From a phage, in NCBI GenBank assembly GCA_012112355.1, contig GCA_012112355.1_3028.1: 64,000 nucleotides of DNA. The stretch is one strand, 5' to 3'. Below, piece after piece: positions 6,836 to 14,161 of this stretch; within the stretch, counting starts at the first letter, position 1; each line of letters begins with the position of its first letter. The notes under the pieces were generated by a model, which saw only the letters and a program-made list of their open reading frames with translations, made no database searches and was not told the DNA's origin. Position numbers and translations under genes: made by a program.

Positions 6836-7951
6836 ATGGAAAAATTTATGACAGAGTTTGGACAAGGATATGTCCAAACGCCGTTTTTATCGGAAAGCAA
6901 TTCAGTAAGATATAAAATAAGCATAGCGGGTTCTTGCCCGCTTTCTACAGCAGGACCATACGTTAAATTTCAGGATAATCCTGTAGGAAATCAAACATTT
7001 AGCGCAGGCCTTCATTTAAGAGTTTTTGACCCTTCCACCGGAGCATTAGTTGATAGTAAATCATATGCTTTTTCGACTTCAAATGATACTACATCAGCTG
7101 CCTTTGTTAGTTTCATGAATTCTTTGACGAATAACAGACTTGTTGCTATATTAACTAGTGGAAAGGTTAATTTTCCTCCTGAAGTAGTATCTTGGTTAAG
7201 AACCGCAGGAACGTCTGCCTTTCCATCTGACTCTATATTGTCAAGATTTGACGTATCATATGCTGCTTTTTATACTTCTTCTAAAAGAGCTATCGCATTA
7301 GAGCATGTTAAATTAAGTAATAGAAAAAGCACAGATGATTATCAAACTATTTTAGATGTTGTATTTGACAGTTTAGAAGACGTAGGAGCTACCGGGTTTC
7401 CAAGAAGAACGTATGAAAGTGTTGAGCAATTTATGTCAGCCGTTGGTGGAACTAATAACGAAATTGCGCGTCTACCAACTTCAGCTGCTATAAGTAAATT
7501 ATCTGATTATAATTTAATTCCTGGAGATGTTCTTTATCTTAAAGCCCAGTTATATGCTGATGCTGATTTACTTGCTCTTGGAACTACAAATATATCTATC
7601 CGTTTTTATAATGCATCTAACGGATATATTTCTTCAACACAAGCTGAATTTACTGGGCAAGCTGGGTCATGGGAATTAAAGGAAGATTATGTAGTTGTTC
7701 CAGAAAATGCAGTAGGATTTACGATATATGCACAGAGAACTGCTCAAGCGGGACAAGGCGGTATGCGAAATTTAAGCTTTTCTGAAGTATCAAGAAACGG
7801 CGGCATTTCAAAACCTGCTGAATTTGGCGTCAATGGTATTCGTGTTAATTATATCTGTGAATCTGCTTCACCTCCGGATATAATGGTACTTCCTACACAA
7901 GCATCGTCTAAAACTGGTAAAGTGTTTGGGCAAGAATTTAGAGAAGTATAA
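6836..7951 (+). CDS. 35: long tail fibre hinge connector gp35
   Basis: 371 aa directly after gene 34; size and position of T4 gp35 (372 aa). Confidence 0.8.
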   Translation: MEKFMTEFGQGYVQTPFLSESNSVRYKISIAGSCPLSTAGPYVKFQDNPVGNQTFSAGLHLRVFDPSTGALVDSKSYAFSTSNDTTSAAFVSFMNSLTNNRLVAILTSGKVNFPPEVVSWLRTAGTSAFPSDSILSRFDVSYAAFYTSSKRAIALEHVKLSNRKSTDDYQTILDVVFDSLEDVGATGFPRRTYESVEQFMSAVGGTNNEIARLPTSAAISKLSDYNLIPGDVLYLKAQLYADADLLALGTTNISIRFYNASNGYISSTQAEFTGQAGSWELKEDYVVVPENAVGFTIYAQRTAQAGQGGMRNLSFSEVSRNGGISKPAEFGVNGIRVNYICESASPPDIMVLPTQASSKTGKVFGQEFREV

Positions 7952-7982: not shown

Positions 7983-7990
7983 TATAAATA
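7983..7990 (+). promoter_or_regulatory. T4-type late promoter core TATAAATA upstream of gene 36
   Basis: Exact TATAAATA about 24 nt upstream of the gene 36 ATG at 8014. Confidence 0.5.
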
Positions 7991-8684: not shown

Positions 8685-11600
8685 ATGGCTACTTTAAAAC
8701 AAATACAATTTAAAAGAAGCAAAACCGCAGGTGCACGTCCTGCTGCTTCAGTATTAGCCGAAGGTGAATTGGCTATAAACTTAAAAGATAGAACAATTTT
8801 TACTAAAGATGATTCAGGAAATATCATCGATTTAAGCATTTCTACTGGTGGTAATATCAGTGGAAATATAACTCAAACTGGAGATTATTTACAGAACGGT
8901 ACATATAATCTCAATGGAAATCAGTTTGTTTATGCAGGAAAATATATTGAATTTTTACCTAAAACAGCTGGTAATGGTGCGTGGGCAAATCAACACCTAA
9001 ATAAAGCTCCTATCTTTACAGATTTAAGTTCAACTACTTCTGTTTCAGAATACCATCCGCTGATTAAACAACGCTATAAAGATGGAACTTTTTCTGCTGG
9101 TACATTAGTAAACGAAGGTAGTTTTAAATTCCATTATATTGATGAAACCGGGACTTCAAAATACTGGACTTTTAATCGAAACGGTAATTTCATCGTAGAT
9201 TCTGGTAGTATTGAAGTTCGTGCTGGTAATATTTCCGCTTCAGGCAATATTAACTCTGCTAATGGTATTATCACCGGTCCTGAAATTGTTACTAAAAATA
9301 TTAATTTCAGTACAAAAACATTTGTAGCTAATGCTAACATTGGATATGATTGGGTTTCTTTACCTACTTGGGTTTATAACCCACCGGCTGATGGTTCTGA
9401 TAATACTACTAACGGTTTAAACTATTTGCGTAAATTGCGTGCATCAAGTGCATCAAGTATTTTCCATGAAATTGCTGATTGTCGAAAAGGCAAGCCACAA
9501 GAAATTTCTTGGTGGACAGGTGTAGGCCCGGAATCTTTCCAATGGGCGTTTGATACCTCCGGTCGTATTACTGCAGGTAAATCTATTTCGGTAGGTCTTC
9601 CTGATAATGGTACAAATGGACGTTATCCTTTAGATTCTGCGATTTCTATAGGTATTGCAATTGGTGATAACGACACCGGTATTAAATGGGTCCGCGACGG
9701 TGTTATTGATTTCATGGCTAACGGTATTTCATCTGCTACTATTTTGAATAACGGTATTAACAGTACTAAAAAATTGATGGTCGGTTATAGTCGAGATTCC
9801 GGTTCTACTTGGGATTACCCAAATAACAACCAAGCAATGTTTACTGCGCGTACCGATGTTGATGGTAATAATAACGGCGATGGACAGACTCATATCGGTT
9901 ATAGCAGCAATGCCAAGATGTATCACTATTTCCGTGGTACAGGTCGTATGTCCGTTAATATGGGCGATGGACTTCTTGTTGAGCCTGGCATTTTGGATAT
10001 TAAAACTGGTTCAAATTCGTTAAATTTGCGTGCTGATGGTACCATAGCTTCTGTTCAAACGTTAAAACTTAATAATGGATTATATTTTAATGGTGATGGA
10101 ACTAATGCTTCTCTAGTTTTTAAAGCAGCTTCAGGTATTGATGGCACTAAGCAAATCATGTGGGAAGGCGGTACACGAGCAGGTCAGAATAAGAGTTATG
10201 TAACTGTTAAAGCATGGGGTAATTCATTTAACGCATCCGGCGATCGTAATCGTGAAACAGTTTTTGAAGTTAGTGACGGGCAAGGATATTATTTTTATTC
10301 ACAGCGTATGGCTCCAAGTGGCTCTGAAACTACTGGGCCTGTTGTAACCCAGTTCAATGGACAAGTTAATGCTAGAGGAAGTATTATTACTGACGGAAGT
10401 TTTAAAGTTAATGGATTAAGCACTTTAGTCGGTAATGTTACTATGTCTAACGGTTTGTTTGTCCAAGGTGGTTCTTCTATTACTGGACAAGTTAAAATTG
10501 GTGGAACAGCTGATGCATTAAGAATTTGGAATGCTGAATACGGGGCTATTTTCCGTCGTTCTGAAGCGGCATTGCATATTATCCCGACTCCTAAAGATGC
10601 TGGAGAATCAGGTGGAATAAGCAATCTCCGTCCATTAAGTATTAGTCTTAATAATGGTATGGTACAAATGCGCCATTCTGTCACGTTAGGCGATGATGGC
10701 GCTGGCGGTAATATGATTACTGTGGACAATGATAACAAACTTGTTGTTGTTACTAGTCATAGTCGTATTTCTCCTAATTACCGTATGCAGGTAGGACAAG
10801 CAGCTTATATTGATGCTGAATGTACTGACACCGTTCGCCCGGCCGGCGCAGGCTCTTTTGCTTCCCAAAATAATGAAAATGTCCGTGCTCCGTTCTATAT
10901 GAATATTAATAGAACTGATACTAGCACATATGTTCCTATTTTAAAACAGCGATATGTTCAAGGTAACAGCTGTTATTCGTTAGGCACTTTAATTAATGGT
11001 GGTAACTTTAGAGTTCATTATCATGAAGGTGGAGACGGAAGCTCAACAGGCGCAGTTATAAAAGATTTAGGCTGGGAATTTAACAAAAACGGTGATTTTT
11101 ACTCTCCTGGTAAATTAGGTGCTGGTGCGGTTCGTATTGGTACTGACGGTAATATCACGGGCGGTTCATTACCTAACTTTGCTAACTTGAACTTGACATT
11201 AGACCGTAAAGTCAATACCCGAATGGTTTCTTATTCAGGTACTGGCGGTTGGTATAAATTAGCCACTGTAACAATGCCACAATCCACTTCAACCGTCACA
11301 TTCGAAATTGCTGGTGGTAATGGATATAATGTCAACATCCCACACCAATGCGTTACTTCGAAAATCGTTTTAAGAACTTCGAACAATAACCCGAAAGGTA
11401 TTAACGCTGTTGTTTGGTCGATGGATACCGATCAGGGTATTAAGAATGTTGCAACGGTTAATACATCAGGCGATGTTTATGACATCTATGTAAACGTTGG
11501 TACTTATGCTCAGGCGTTAGCAGTTTCTTATTATGCTACTCCTAATGCTACCATTAATCAGATATTTGCAACGGACCAACCGGGTGCAACAGAAACTGCG

Positions 11601-12656
11601 GTTGAACTTCCTGAGACGGCTATTCAAGGACAGGTTGCTAGTGTTCTGAACAACTTGGCTCCTACCCCTAACGGTGTGAAGCGTTATGAAGCCGATTCTG
11701 AAATAGCTATTAATAGCCAAACCGGTATTCGTATCAGAAGCAATGCCGATAAAACTGGTTCTGTGGCTACAATGTTACGAAATGACGGTGGCAGTTTTTA
11801 TATTCTGTTTACAGATAAAAATGCCACCGATGGCGCAGCAACTGTTAATGGTGATTGGAATAGTAAACGTCCTTTCGCAATTAACTTAACAACCGGCGAA
11901 GTGATGATGAATAATGGCATAGCTGTTCGCAGCGCTGCTTTATTCTATAATAGCATAAACGTCAAAGATAATGGTTCTATTAACTTTGATAAATCAGGTG
12001 CTAACCCGAGAAATATGAGAATATTTCATGCTGGCGATGCTTCTCGCGGTAACCGTATTGAAATTGCCGATGAAACTAACTATATTGCTTACTTTGAAAA
12101 AACTCCAGGTGGAGCTAACCGCTTTGTAGTAAATAATGCTACTGTAGCTGGTATTAATCAAACAAATTCATTTGGTATTAATATCAATAACGCACTTGGT
12201 GGAAATAGTATAGCATTTGGTGATAGCGATACTGGTATTAAGCAAAATGGCGATGGATTATTAGACATATATGCGAACAGCGTACAAGTATTCCGTTTCC
12301 AAAACGGTGATTTGTACTCATATAAAAATATAAATGCTCCAAACGTTTATATTCGTTCTGATATTCGCTTAAAATCTAATTTCAAACCTATCGAAAATGC
12401 ACTTGATAAAGTTGAAAAACTCAATGGTGTCATTTATGATAAAGCTGAATACATCGGTGGAGAGGCAATTGAAACTGAAGCGGGTATTGTAGCTCAAACG
12501 TTACAAGACGTTTTACCAGAAGCCGTCCGTGAAACAGAAGACAGCAAGGGTAATAAAATACTCACTGTTTCTTCTCAAGCCCAGATTGCTCTTCTGGTTG
12601 AAGCTGTGAAAACGCTTTCTTCTCGTGTAAAAGAACTTGAATCTAAACTTATGTAA
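8685..12656 (+). CDS. 37: long tail fibre distal subunit gp37, T2/T6-like long form with a C-terminal intramolecular-chaperone-like domain
   Basis: 1323 aa; [46 protein letters not shown] N-terminus as in gp37; internal repeats; C-terminal tail contains SDIRLK...VKELESKLM. Confidence 0.9.
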   Translation: [1323 protein letters not shown]

Positions 12657-12657
12657 A

Positions 12658-12675
12658 AGAGGGCTTCGGCCCTCT
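12658..12675 (+). other. RNA stem-loop with UUCG tetraloop (agagggc-ttcg-gccctct) between genes 37 and 38
   Basis: Perfect inverted repeat in the 30-nt 37-38 intergenic spacer; no T-run, so more likely a stabilising or processing hairpin than a strong terminator. Confidence 0.45.
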
Positions 12676-12686
12676 AAGGATTTTTA

Positions 12687-13472
12687 ATGGCAATTGTAGG
12701 TGTTCCTGGCTGGATTGGTGAATCTGCCGTGAATGAAACTGGACAACGTTGGATGGATGCTGCAATGAGAGCAGTCCGTGTTTCAGTTCCCGGTTGGATG
12801 AGCTCAATGGCCGGACAATCTAAAGAAGTATATTATAGCATTGGTGCTAGTAATTCTTATAATAAAGATACATTAATAAACTGGATAAAAGCCCAAGGCA
12901 GTACTCCTGTTGTTATTACTATTACAGGAAATATTGTTTCTCGATCTACTGGTGTTCCATGCTTAGATTTTCCTAGCTCATTAACTAATGCATACGTGAC
13001 ACTTAATATCAATTCAGGAGTGCATGTTTGGGGCCGTGGCGGGAATGGCGGAAATAACTCTGCCGGTGGAGCAGGAGGAACTGCAATAAATAATGGAATT
13101 GGAACTAGATTGCGTATTAACAACAATGGTGTTATCGCAGGAGGCGGTGGCGGCGGTGGAGGCGGATATTATTCTCCTTTTTCACAAATGAAATTGACTT
13201 TTGGCGGTGGCGGCGGTCGTCCATTTGGTGCTGCTGGCGGGTCTGCTAATATGGAACAGGGCGCTACTGCTGGTACTATTTCTGCACCTGGTAAAGGGTC
13301 TGTCAATGGTATCTATAATGGCGGGAATGGCGGTGATGCTGGTGCCGCAGGTGGTAAATGTAATATTCGTGGGCAAGGATCAGAATATAACGGCGGCGCG
13401 GCCGGTAAAGCTGTTACTGGTAATGCTCCAACTTGGACTAAGGTTGGTACAATATATGGTTCAAGAGTATAA
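12687..13472 (+). CDS. 38: receptor-recognising tail fibre adhesin gp38 (T2-type, glycine-rich)
   Basis: 261 aa, MAIVGVPGWIGESAVNETGQRWMDAAM...; poly-Gly blocks (GGGGGGGGGYY, FGGGGGRPFGAAGG) separating variable segments, as in T2/K3/Ox2 gp38. Confidence 0.85.
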   Translation: MAIVGVPGWIGESAVNETGQRWMDAAMRAVRVSVPGWMSSMAGQSKEVYYSIGASNSYNKDTLINWIKAQGSTPVVITITGNIVSRSTGVPCLDFPSSLTNAYVTLNINSGVHVWGRGGNGGNNSAGGAGGTAINNGIGTRLRINNNGVIAGGGGGGGGGYYSPFSQMKLTFGGGGGRPFGAAGGSANMEQGATAGTISAPGKGSVNGIYNGGNGGDAGAAGGKCNIRGQGSEYNGGAAGKAVTGNAPTWTKVGTIYGSRV

Positions 13473-13504: not shown

Positions 13505-14161
13505 ATGGCAGCACCTAGAATATCATTTTCGCCCTCTGATATTCTATTTGGTGTTCTAGATCGCTTGTTCAAAGATAACGCTACTGGGAAGGTTCTTGCT
13601 TCCCGGGTAGCTGTCGTAATTCTTTTATTTATGATGGCGATTGTTTGGTATAGGGGAGATAGTTTCTTTGAGTACTATAAGCAATCAAAGTATGAAACAT
13701 ACAGTGAAATTATTGAAAAGGAAAGAAATGCACGCTTTGAATCTGTCGCCCTGGAACAACTCCAGATAGTTCATATATCATCTGAGGCAGACTTTAGTGC
13801 GGTGTATTCTTTCCGCCCTAAAAACTTAAACTATTTTGTTGATATTATAGCATACGAAGGAAGATTACCTTCAACAATAACTGAAAAATCACTTGGAGGA
13901 TATCCTGTTGATAAAACTATGGATGAATATATAGTTCATTTAAATGGACGTCATTATTATTCTGACTCAAAATTTGCTTTTTTACCAACTAAAAAGCCTA
14001 CTCCCGAAATAAACTACATGTACAGTTGTCCATATTTTAATTTGGATAATATCTATGCTGGAACGATAACCATGTACTGGTATAGAAATGATCATATAAG
14101 TAATGACCGCCTTGAATCAATATGCGCTCAGGCGGCCAGAATATTAGGAAGGGCTAAATAA
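13505..14161 (+). CDS. t: holin t
   Basis: 218 aa as T4 T; MAAPRISFSPSDILFGVLDRLFKDNATGKVLASRVAVVILLFMMAIVWY with a single N-terminal TM segment and a large periplasmic domain. Confidence 0.9.
   Translation: MAAPRISFSPSDILFGVLDRLFKDNATGKVLASRVAVVILLFMMAIVWYRGDSFFEYYKQSKYETYSEIIEKERNARFESVALEQLQIVHISSEADFSAVYSFRPKNLNYFVDIIAYEGRLPSTITEKSLGGYPVDKTMDEYIVHLNGRHYYSDSKFAFLPTKKPTPEINYMYSCPYFNLDNIYAGTITMYWYRNDHISNDRLESICAQAARILGRAK

Follow-up and report, generated by a model that had tools for sequence, protein, structure and literature searches.

A C-terminal Peptidase_S74-type module, predicted to act as a self-cleaving intramolecular chaperone, in the gp37 long tail fibre protein of a T2-like phage locus

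Introduction

The C-terminal domains of endosialidase, of the T5 protein pb1 and of MyRF trimerise and aid the folding of the triple β-helix upstream of them before a Ser-Lys dyad cuts the chain, and Ser-to-Ala or Lys-to-Ala changes abolish this cleavage (PMC8326128, PMC4690869). The dyad of MyRF (S587/K592) has been equated with that of the endosialidase endoNF (S911/K916) (PMC8326128). In phage S16 the last 113 residues of the long tail fibre protein gp37 autocleave, baring a docking surface for gp38 (PMC7917993), and three tryptophans of S16 gp38 plug into the gp37 tip (PMC6851490). Processing of gp37 followed by capping with gp38 is also stated for T2 and T6, citing Drexler et al. (1986) and with no enzyme named, in a paper which further describes a lock-and-key pairing, each gp37 C-terminal subtype occurring only with the gp38 N-terminal subtype that matches it (PMC3157838).

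Here we show that the C-terminus of a gp37 encoded upstream of a gp38 adhesin belongs to the Peptidase_S74 family, carries the residues of the Ser-Lys dyad and is nearly identical to that of T2. We conclude with high confidence that gp37 ends in a T2-like intramolecular chaperone of the S74 type (aa 1225–1323), from which autoproteolysis and gp38 docking would follow.

Results

The gene 37–38 locus

The DNA analysed (the window, a stretch of 64,000 nucleotides from a phage) is throughout a Tequatrovirus genome, positions 20000–44000 (24 kb) sharing ~96% identity with, for example, GiZh and vB_Eco_NR1. The features considered below are as follows.

6836–7951: gp35-like ORF in the position of gp35 (hinge protein), 371 aa
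8014–8676: gp36 (Pfam Phage_T4_gp36)
8685–12656, + strand: gene 37, long tail fibre distal subunit precursor, 1323 aa plus stop, between gp36 and gp38
8685–12356, + strand: predicted mature gp37, aa 1–1224, 131.0 kDa per chain (conserved Ser position and literature rule)
12159–12356, + strand: distal tip of mature gp37, probable gp38 docking platform, aa ~1159–1224 (alignments with T2 gp37 and 6F45_A)
12354–12359, + strand: predicted scissile bond R1224^S1225, codons CGT TCT (Ser alignment; cleavage position from the literature)
12357–12653, + strand: C-terminal intramolecular chaperone, predicted self-cleaving domain, aa 1225–1323, 99 aa, 10.8 kDa (Pfam, PDB profile, model, T2 identity)
12357–12530, + strand: Peptidase_S74 Pfam core, aa 1225–1282 (PF13884)
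12372–12374, + strand: codon AAA of K1230, predicted general base of the Ser-Lys dyad (invariant alignment column)
12573–12650, + strand: long C-terminal helix, aa ~1297–1322, predicted trimeric coiled-coil element (AF2 model; trimer by analogy)
12658–12675, + strand: intergenic hairpin AGAGGGC-TTCG-GCCCTCT (UUCG tetraloop), then T-rich AAGGATTTTT, between the gene 37 stop and the gene 38 ribosome-binding site
12687–13472, + strand: gene 38, T2/S16-type tail-fibre adhesin, 261 aa (Pfam GP38 and Gp38_N; PDB 6F45_D)
13505–14161: holin t, beyond gp38
Minus strand: asiA-like ORF, a neighbour of the tail-fibre genes

Translation of positions 12357–12656 (+ strand) gives S1225 (codon TCT, 12357–12359) to M1323 plus the stop codon, i.e. 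the C-terminus of gp37, a protein with a calculated full length of 141.8 kDa per chain. A module of ~98 residues had been placed here by the original prediction; its location holds, while its length becomes 99 aa counting the Ser, since the interval starts at the Ser codon and includes the stop. An antisense coding alternative at the module was dropped, as the opposite strand beneath it contains no ORF of at least 60 aa.

The ORF in the gp35 position displays a match of its own, aa 58–126 resembling Pfam ILEI (PF15711, interleukin-like EMT inducer/PANDER-type) with an E-value of 3.4e-8 (34.3 bits, cutoff 27).

Identity of the C-terminal module

The Pfam profile PF13884 (Peptidase_S74, ‘Chaperone of endosialidase’) matched gp37 aa 1225–1282 with an E-value of 2.4e-15 (57 bits, gathering cutoff 22) and over positions 1–58 of the 58 in the profile; judged by this match, the S74 resemblance of the gp37 tail is far beyond chance. 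To the module we aligned ten others assembled from phage genome records (Shigella phage ESh26, T6, Ox2, Salmonella SG1, Cronobacter, Klebsiella, Aeromonas and Vibrio T4-like phages, a Synechococcus cyanophage and a T5-like L-shaped fibre), the 11 sequences ranging over Tequatrovirus, Pseudotevenvirus, Slopekvirus, Aeromonas, Vibrio and cyanophage T4-like phages and a T5-like phage. Residues S1225, D1226 and K1230 were invariant in all 11 chaperone domains, as were the downstream motifs G..AQ and LPE.

The Ser-x4-Lys dyad of gp37 (S1225-D-I-R-L-K1230) has the pattern S-D-x-x-x-K. Its serine aligns with the catalytic Ser of S16, with S587 of MyRF (an Ala in the mutant 7DC3) and with residue 1 of the GA-1 chain 3GUD_A, and the equivalents of K1230 are MyRF K592, endoNF K916 and T5 K1269, the T5 pair S1264/K1269 having equal spacing. 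A search of the PDB with the alignment profile retrieved S16 gp37 (6F45_A, E-value 1e-20), the tail fibre 8JOV (1e-11), the ICA domain of MyRF (7DC3, 1e-10) and the GA-1 neck-appendage chaperone (3GUD_A). The module extends to the stop codon and is thus the extreme C-terminus of the fibre protein, and the segment directly upstream of it is homologous to the trimeric β-helix tip of S16 gp37 (6F45_A).

An AF2 monomer model of gp37 aa 1174–1323 gave the chaperone part a pLDDT of 71–90, with helix, hairpin and helix elements and a C-terminal helix of 26 residues (model residues 124–149, pLDDT about 80–90) that aligns with those of S16, 8JOV and MyRF. The fibre tip, which in homologues interdigitates among three chains, had a pLDDT below 50 in the monomer. 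Foldseek against the PDB returned the MyRF ICA structure 7DC3 as the best match (E-value 3e-6, probability 1.0, TM 0.51) and the endosialidase (endoNF) intramolecular chaperone 3GW6 as the second (E-value 0.014, probability 0.95), all remaining matches having E-values of at least 0.2. The fold of the predicted monomer, a mixed α/β part with a long C-terminal helix, is thus that of an intramolecular chaperone. With Pfam, the PDB profile and Foldseek in agreement, the original reading of the gp37 tail as an S74-type chaperone is borne out.

The downstream adhesin

The ORF at 12687–13472 matched Pfam GP38 (PF05268, E-value 5.5e-72) and Gp38_N (PF21721, 8e-18), as well as S16 gp38 (PDB 6F45_D, 3.7e-49), and its residues W9, W22 and W37 align with the S16 tryptophans. 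Its N-terminal ~55 aa are near-identical to those of T2 gp38, whereas the specificity domain is divergent. Tip and chaperone of gp37 are, like the N-domain of gp38, all of the T2 type, in keeping with the published subtype pairing, and these sequence comparisons confirm the predicted fibre as a T2/S16-type, adhesin-capped gp37–gp38 fibre whose subtype is specifically that of T2.

A conserved block around the gene 37–38 junction

The last 150 aa of gp37 are 100% identical to those of RB18, teqhal, FriedrichMiescher and vB_Eco_NR1, and 98.7% identical to those of T2. A nucleotide identity scan revealed one block of 88–100% identity (~12181–12840) with both flanks at 50–70%; it spans the tip and chaperone of gp37 as well as the hairpin, reaches ~50 codons into gene 38, and resembles a conserved cassette at the junction with hypervariable sequence on either side. 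No phage record covered more than 86% of genes 37–38, and the best-covering one was only 87.5% identical. The whole of gp37 is a new mosaic, near-identical to T2 only at the N-terminus, at aa ~700–780 and over the last 165 aa. The T2-type chaperone, whose 99 aa do not include the basic and aromatic C-terminal tail of the 113-aa T6/Ox2/S16-type modules, may represent a minimal form that travels as one recombination cassette with the tip, the hairpin and the gp38 attachment domain, but we consider this unlikely. If such a cassette were a functional exchange unit, divergent shafts and adhesin specificity domains could recombine freely on either side of it. On this reading the missing tail might also mean that release of the chaperone or loading of gp38 works by a different mechanism.

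The intergenic hairpin has a minimum free energy of -13.4 kcal/mol, and since its z-score against shuffles is only -1.2 it was recorded merely as a terminator-like site; the annotations of vB_Eco_NR1 and of Klebsiella phage Matisse list a ‘terminator’ in the corresponding region of genes 37–38. No T4 late promoter (TATAAATA) that might drive gene 38 was found between positions 7990 and 27331; matches to it across the window numbered five, below the ~10 expected by chance, and sigma-70-like sites occurred at chance level.

Discussion

Proposed assembly and competing explanations

By analogy with the homologues described above, the chaperone domains would trimerise via their C-terminal helices and so align three nascent gp37 chains in register, and the chaperone trimer would then nucleate folding of the interdigitated β-helical fibre tip. 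Correct folding of the tip would be followed by attack of S1225, with K1230 as its activator, on the R1224–S1225 bond in every chain, and departure of the 10.8-kDa chaperone fragments would expose a flat trimeric tip. On this tip one gp38 monomer would dock via its N-terminal three-helix domain with the three tryptophans, supplying receptor recognition. The order of folding, cutting, release and capping is expected from the mechanisms of the homologues and from the presence of an S16-like gp38 with three Trp. A folding-sensor or oxyanion-hole Arg from a neighbouring chain is known in endoNF (R897) and T5 (R1250). The basic residues upstream of S1225 in gp37 are R1204, K1214 and R1224, and the alignment of 11 sequences yielded no basic residue upstream of the Ser that was both aligned and conserved family-wide; family-wide variation directly before the Ser keeps such an alignment from identifying a sensor Arg. 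MyRF is without such an Arg contact from the stalk (PMC8326128).

Removal of the module might instead be the work of a separate host or phage protease, or the cut might need gp38, with no autoproteolysis involved. We found no paper testing autoproteolysis of a T2-type gp37, and the processing in T2 and T6 is cited without an enzyme; the paper on PP01 gp38 makes no mention of gp37 cleavage. Yet the Ser-Lys dyad is intact and invariant, the S74 profile is matched in full, T5 pb1 (PMC4690869) and MyRF (PMC8326128) cleave themselves when expressed alone in E. coli, and S16 gp37 is described as autocleaving (PMC7917993), all of which makes a separate protease extremely improbable. The chance is smaller still, close to nil, that the module is an inactive S74 relic which stays attached and caps the mature fibre in a structural or receptor-binding role; the analysis turned up nothing in favour of this. 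Its catalytic residues are conserved, 98 of its 99 residues are those of the T2 module, for which processing is reported (PMC3157838), and the adhesin with a docking domain encoded directly downstream needs a bare tip; in T5, moreover, an uncleaved chaperone blocks function (PMC4690869).

Self-cleavage by the S74 domain thus remains the preferred reading, and what is left to weigh is the bond. The original prediction had put the cut at the Ser-Asp junction (Ser1225^Asp1226), with the mature tip ending in ...NVYIRS. A precedent of a kind exists in phi29, the dissenting case, where the model, in weak density, assigns the Ser to the mature side (PMC4690869). The other homologues point elsewhere: S16 gp37 is cut at DLNVS^SDRRIKK (PMC7917993), T5 pb1 between Thr1263 and Ser1264, leaving a mature fibre without the Ser (PMC4690869), and MyRF between P586 and S587, as determined by mass spectrometry (PMC8326128), i.e. 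all three before the Ser. The site predicted for the fPS phages (DVYIR^SDGRLKI; PMC7917993) is nearly equal to the junction of the gp37 studied here, and the crystallised GA-1 chaperone chain 3GUD_A begins SDERHK, with the Ser as its first residue. A cut after the Ser is therefore very unlikely. Because the homologues checked cut N-terminal to the catalytic Ser, cleavage should by analogy take place at R1224^S1225, so that mature gp37 would end in ...NVYIR(1224), one residue earlier than first proposed, and a 99-aa, 10.8-kDa fragment would be freed. Drexler in 1986 reportedly put the portion removed from T2 gp37 at about 120 residues, a gel-based estimate which, on a protein of 140 kDa, would not tell 120 from 99 residues. 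As R1224 is itself a tryptic site, trypsin cannot show the native C-terminus.

Significance

The finding is correct but already known, and close homologues have firmly established how such a module works; since the processing of T2 and T6 gp37 is published and the S16 homologue has been structurally characterised, no new biological question arises. There are practical consequences. In annotation, virion gp37 should read aa 1–1224, and the product of gene 38 should be named a receptor-binding adhesin and not a T4-style assembly chaperone. For fibre expression or re-targeting, the chaperone domain would be needed for folding and would be absent from the product.

Comparison with known systems

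The nearest relative is T2 gp37 (X04442/LC348380, 1341 aa), which is 95% identical over the last 165 aa (aa 1159 onward) and whose chaperone differs in a single position (S1313 here, Ala in T2). The gene order 36-37-38-t is also the same in both. The body of T2 gp37, in contrast, is only about 55% identical, and aa ~1087–1158 are unalignable; with the gp37 body and the gp38 specificity domain both divergent, host receptor specificity probably differs from that of T2. The tip and S74 chaperone of S16 gp37 (PDB 6F45; Dunne et al., 2018) are homologous (6F45_A, E-value 8e-13 with the single sequence), although identity within the chaperone is only about 35–45%, that domain is 113 aa long as opposed to 99 here, and the junction is DLNVS^S as opposed to NVYIR^S.

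The gp37 proteins of T6, Ox2 and SG1 likewise bear S74 at the C-terminus (in T6 at aa 882–940 of 994, by Pfam), followed by a gp38 adhesin, and share the motif (D/N)VYIR^SD. Together with the T2 tip identity and the T2/S16-type gp38, this upholds the T2/T6-like adhesin architecture originally proposed. Their chaperones, however, are only about 42% identical, and at 113 aa they have an extra C-terminal tail (PFFTKIARKISNYFKF) that the T2 type is without. Two gp37 chaperone subtypes exist in Tequatrovirus, one of 113 aa with this basic and aromatic tail and the T2 type of 99 aa without it. The T2 type is closer to the modules of Cronobacter phage Cronuts (Pseudotevenvirus) and Enterobacter phage Nando (61–65%) than to that of T6 (42%). 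The fibre gene of Cronuts, which has the closest chaperone from outside Tequatrovirus, is followed by another ‘large distal tail fiber subunit’ gene and no gp38 adhesin, so that this type of chaperone is also used where the downstream genes are arranged differently.

In T4, gp37 has the same gene position and is homologous in its N-terminal and central fibre parts, including the Gp34_trimer domain, but it contains Collar and Phage_fiber domains and no S74, as the original prediction had it in stating that T4 gp37 lacks such a tail; the gp37 of the window has S74 and no Collar. Furthermore, T4 gp37 itself binds the receptor, and the gp38 of T4, an unrelated λ-Tfa-like protein, is an assembly chaperone that acts in trans, as does gp57A. 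The Gp34_trimer match in our gp37 (PF21446, aa 516–653, E-value 8e-9) has counterparts in the gp37 of T4, T6 and ESh26 and, on the profile evidence, reflects modules common to the proximal and distal half-fibres.

More remote systems, namely the K1F endosialidase endoNF (MEROPS S74), T5 pb1, GA-1 gp12 and the eukaryotic MyRF ICA, have in common with the module the Pfam family, the S-D-x-x-x-K dyad and the fold class, and their logic is the one proposed here: to trimerise, fold a β-helix, self-cleave and leave. Their clients differ, however, comprising a sialidase tailspike, a bullet-shaped tip and a transcription factor. In endoNF, T5 and GA-1 the end laid bare by cleavage either binds the receptor directly or constitutes the final product; in the fibre described here it would instead become the docking site for a separate, monomeric adhesin.
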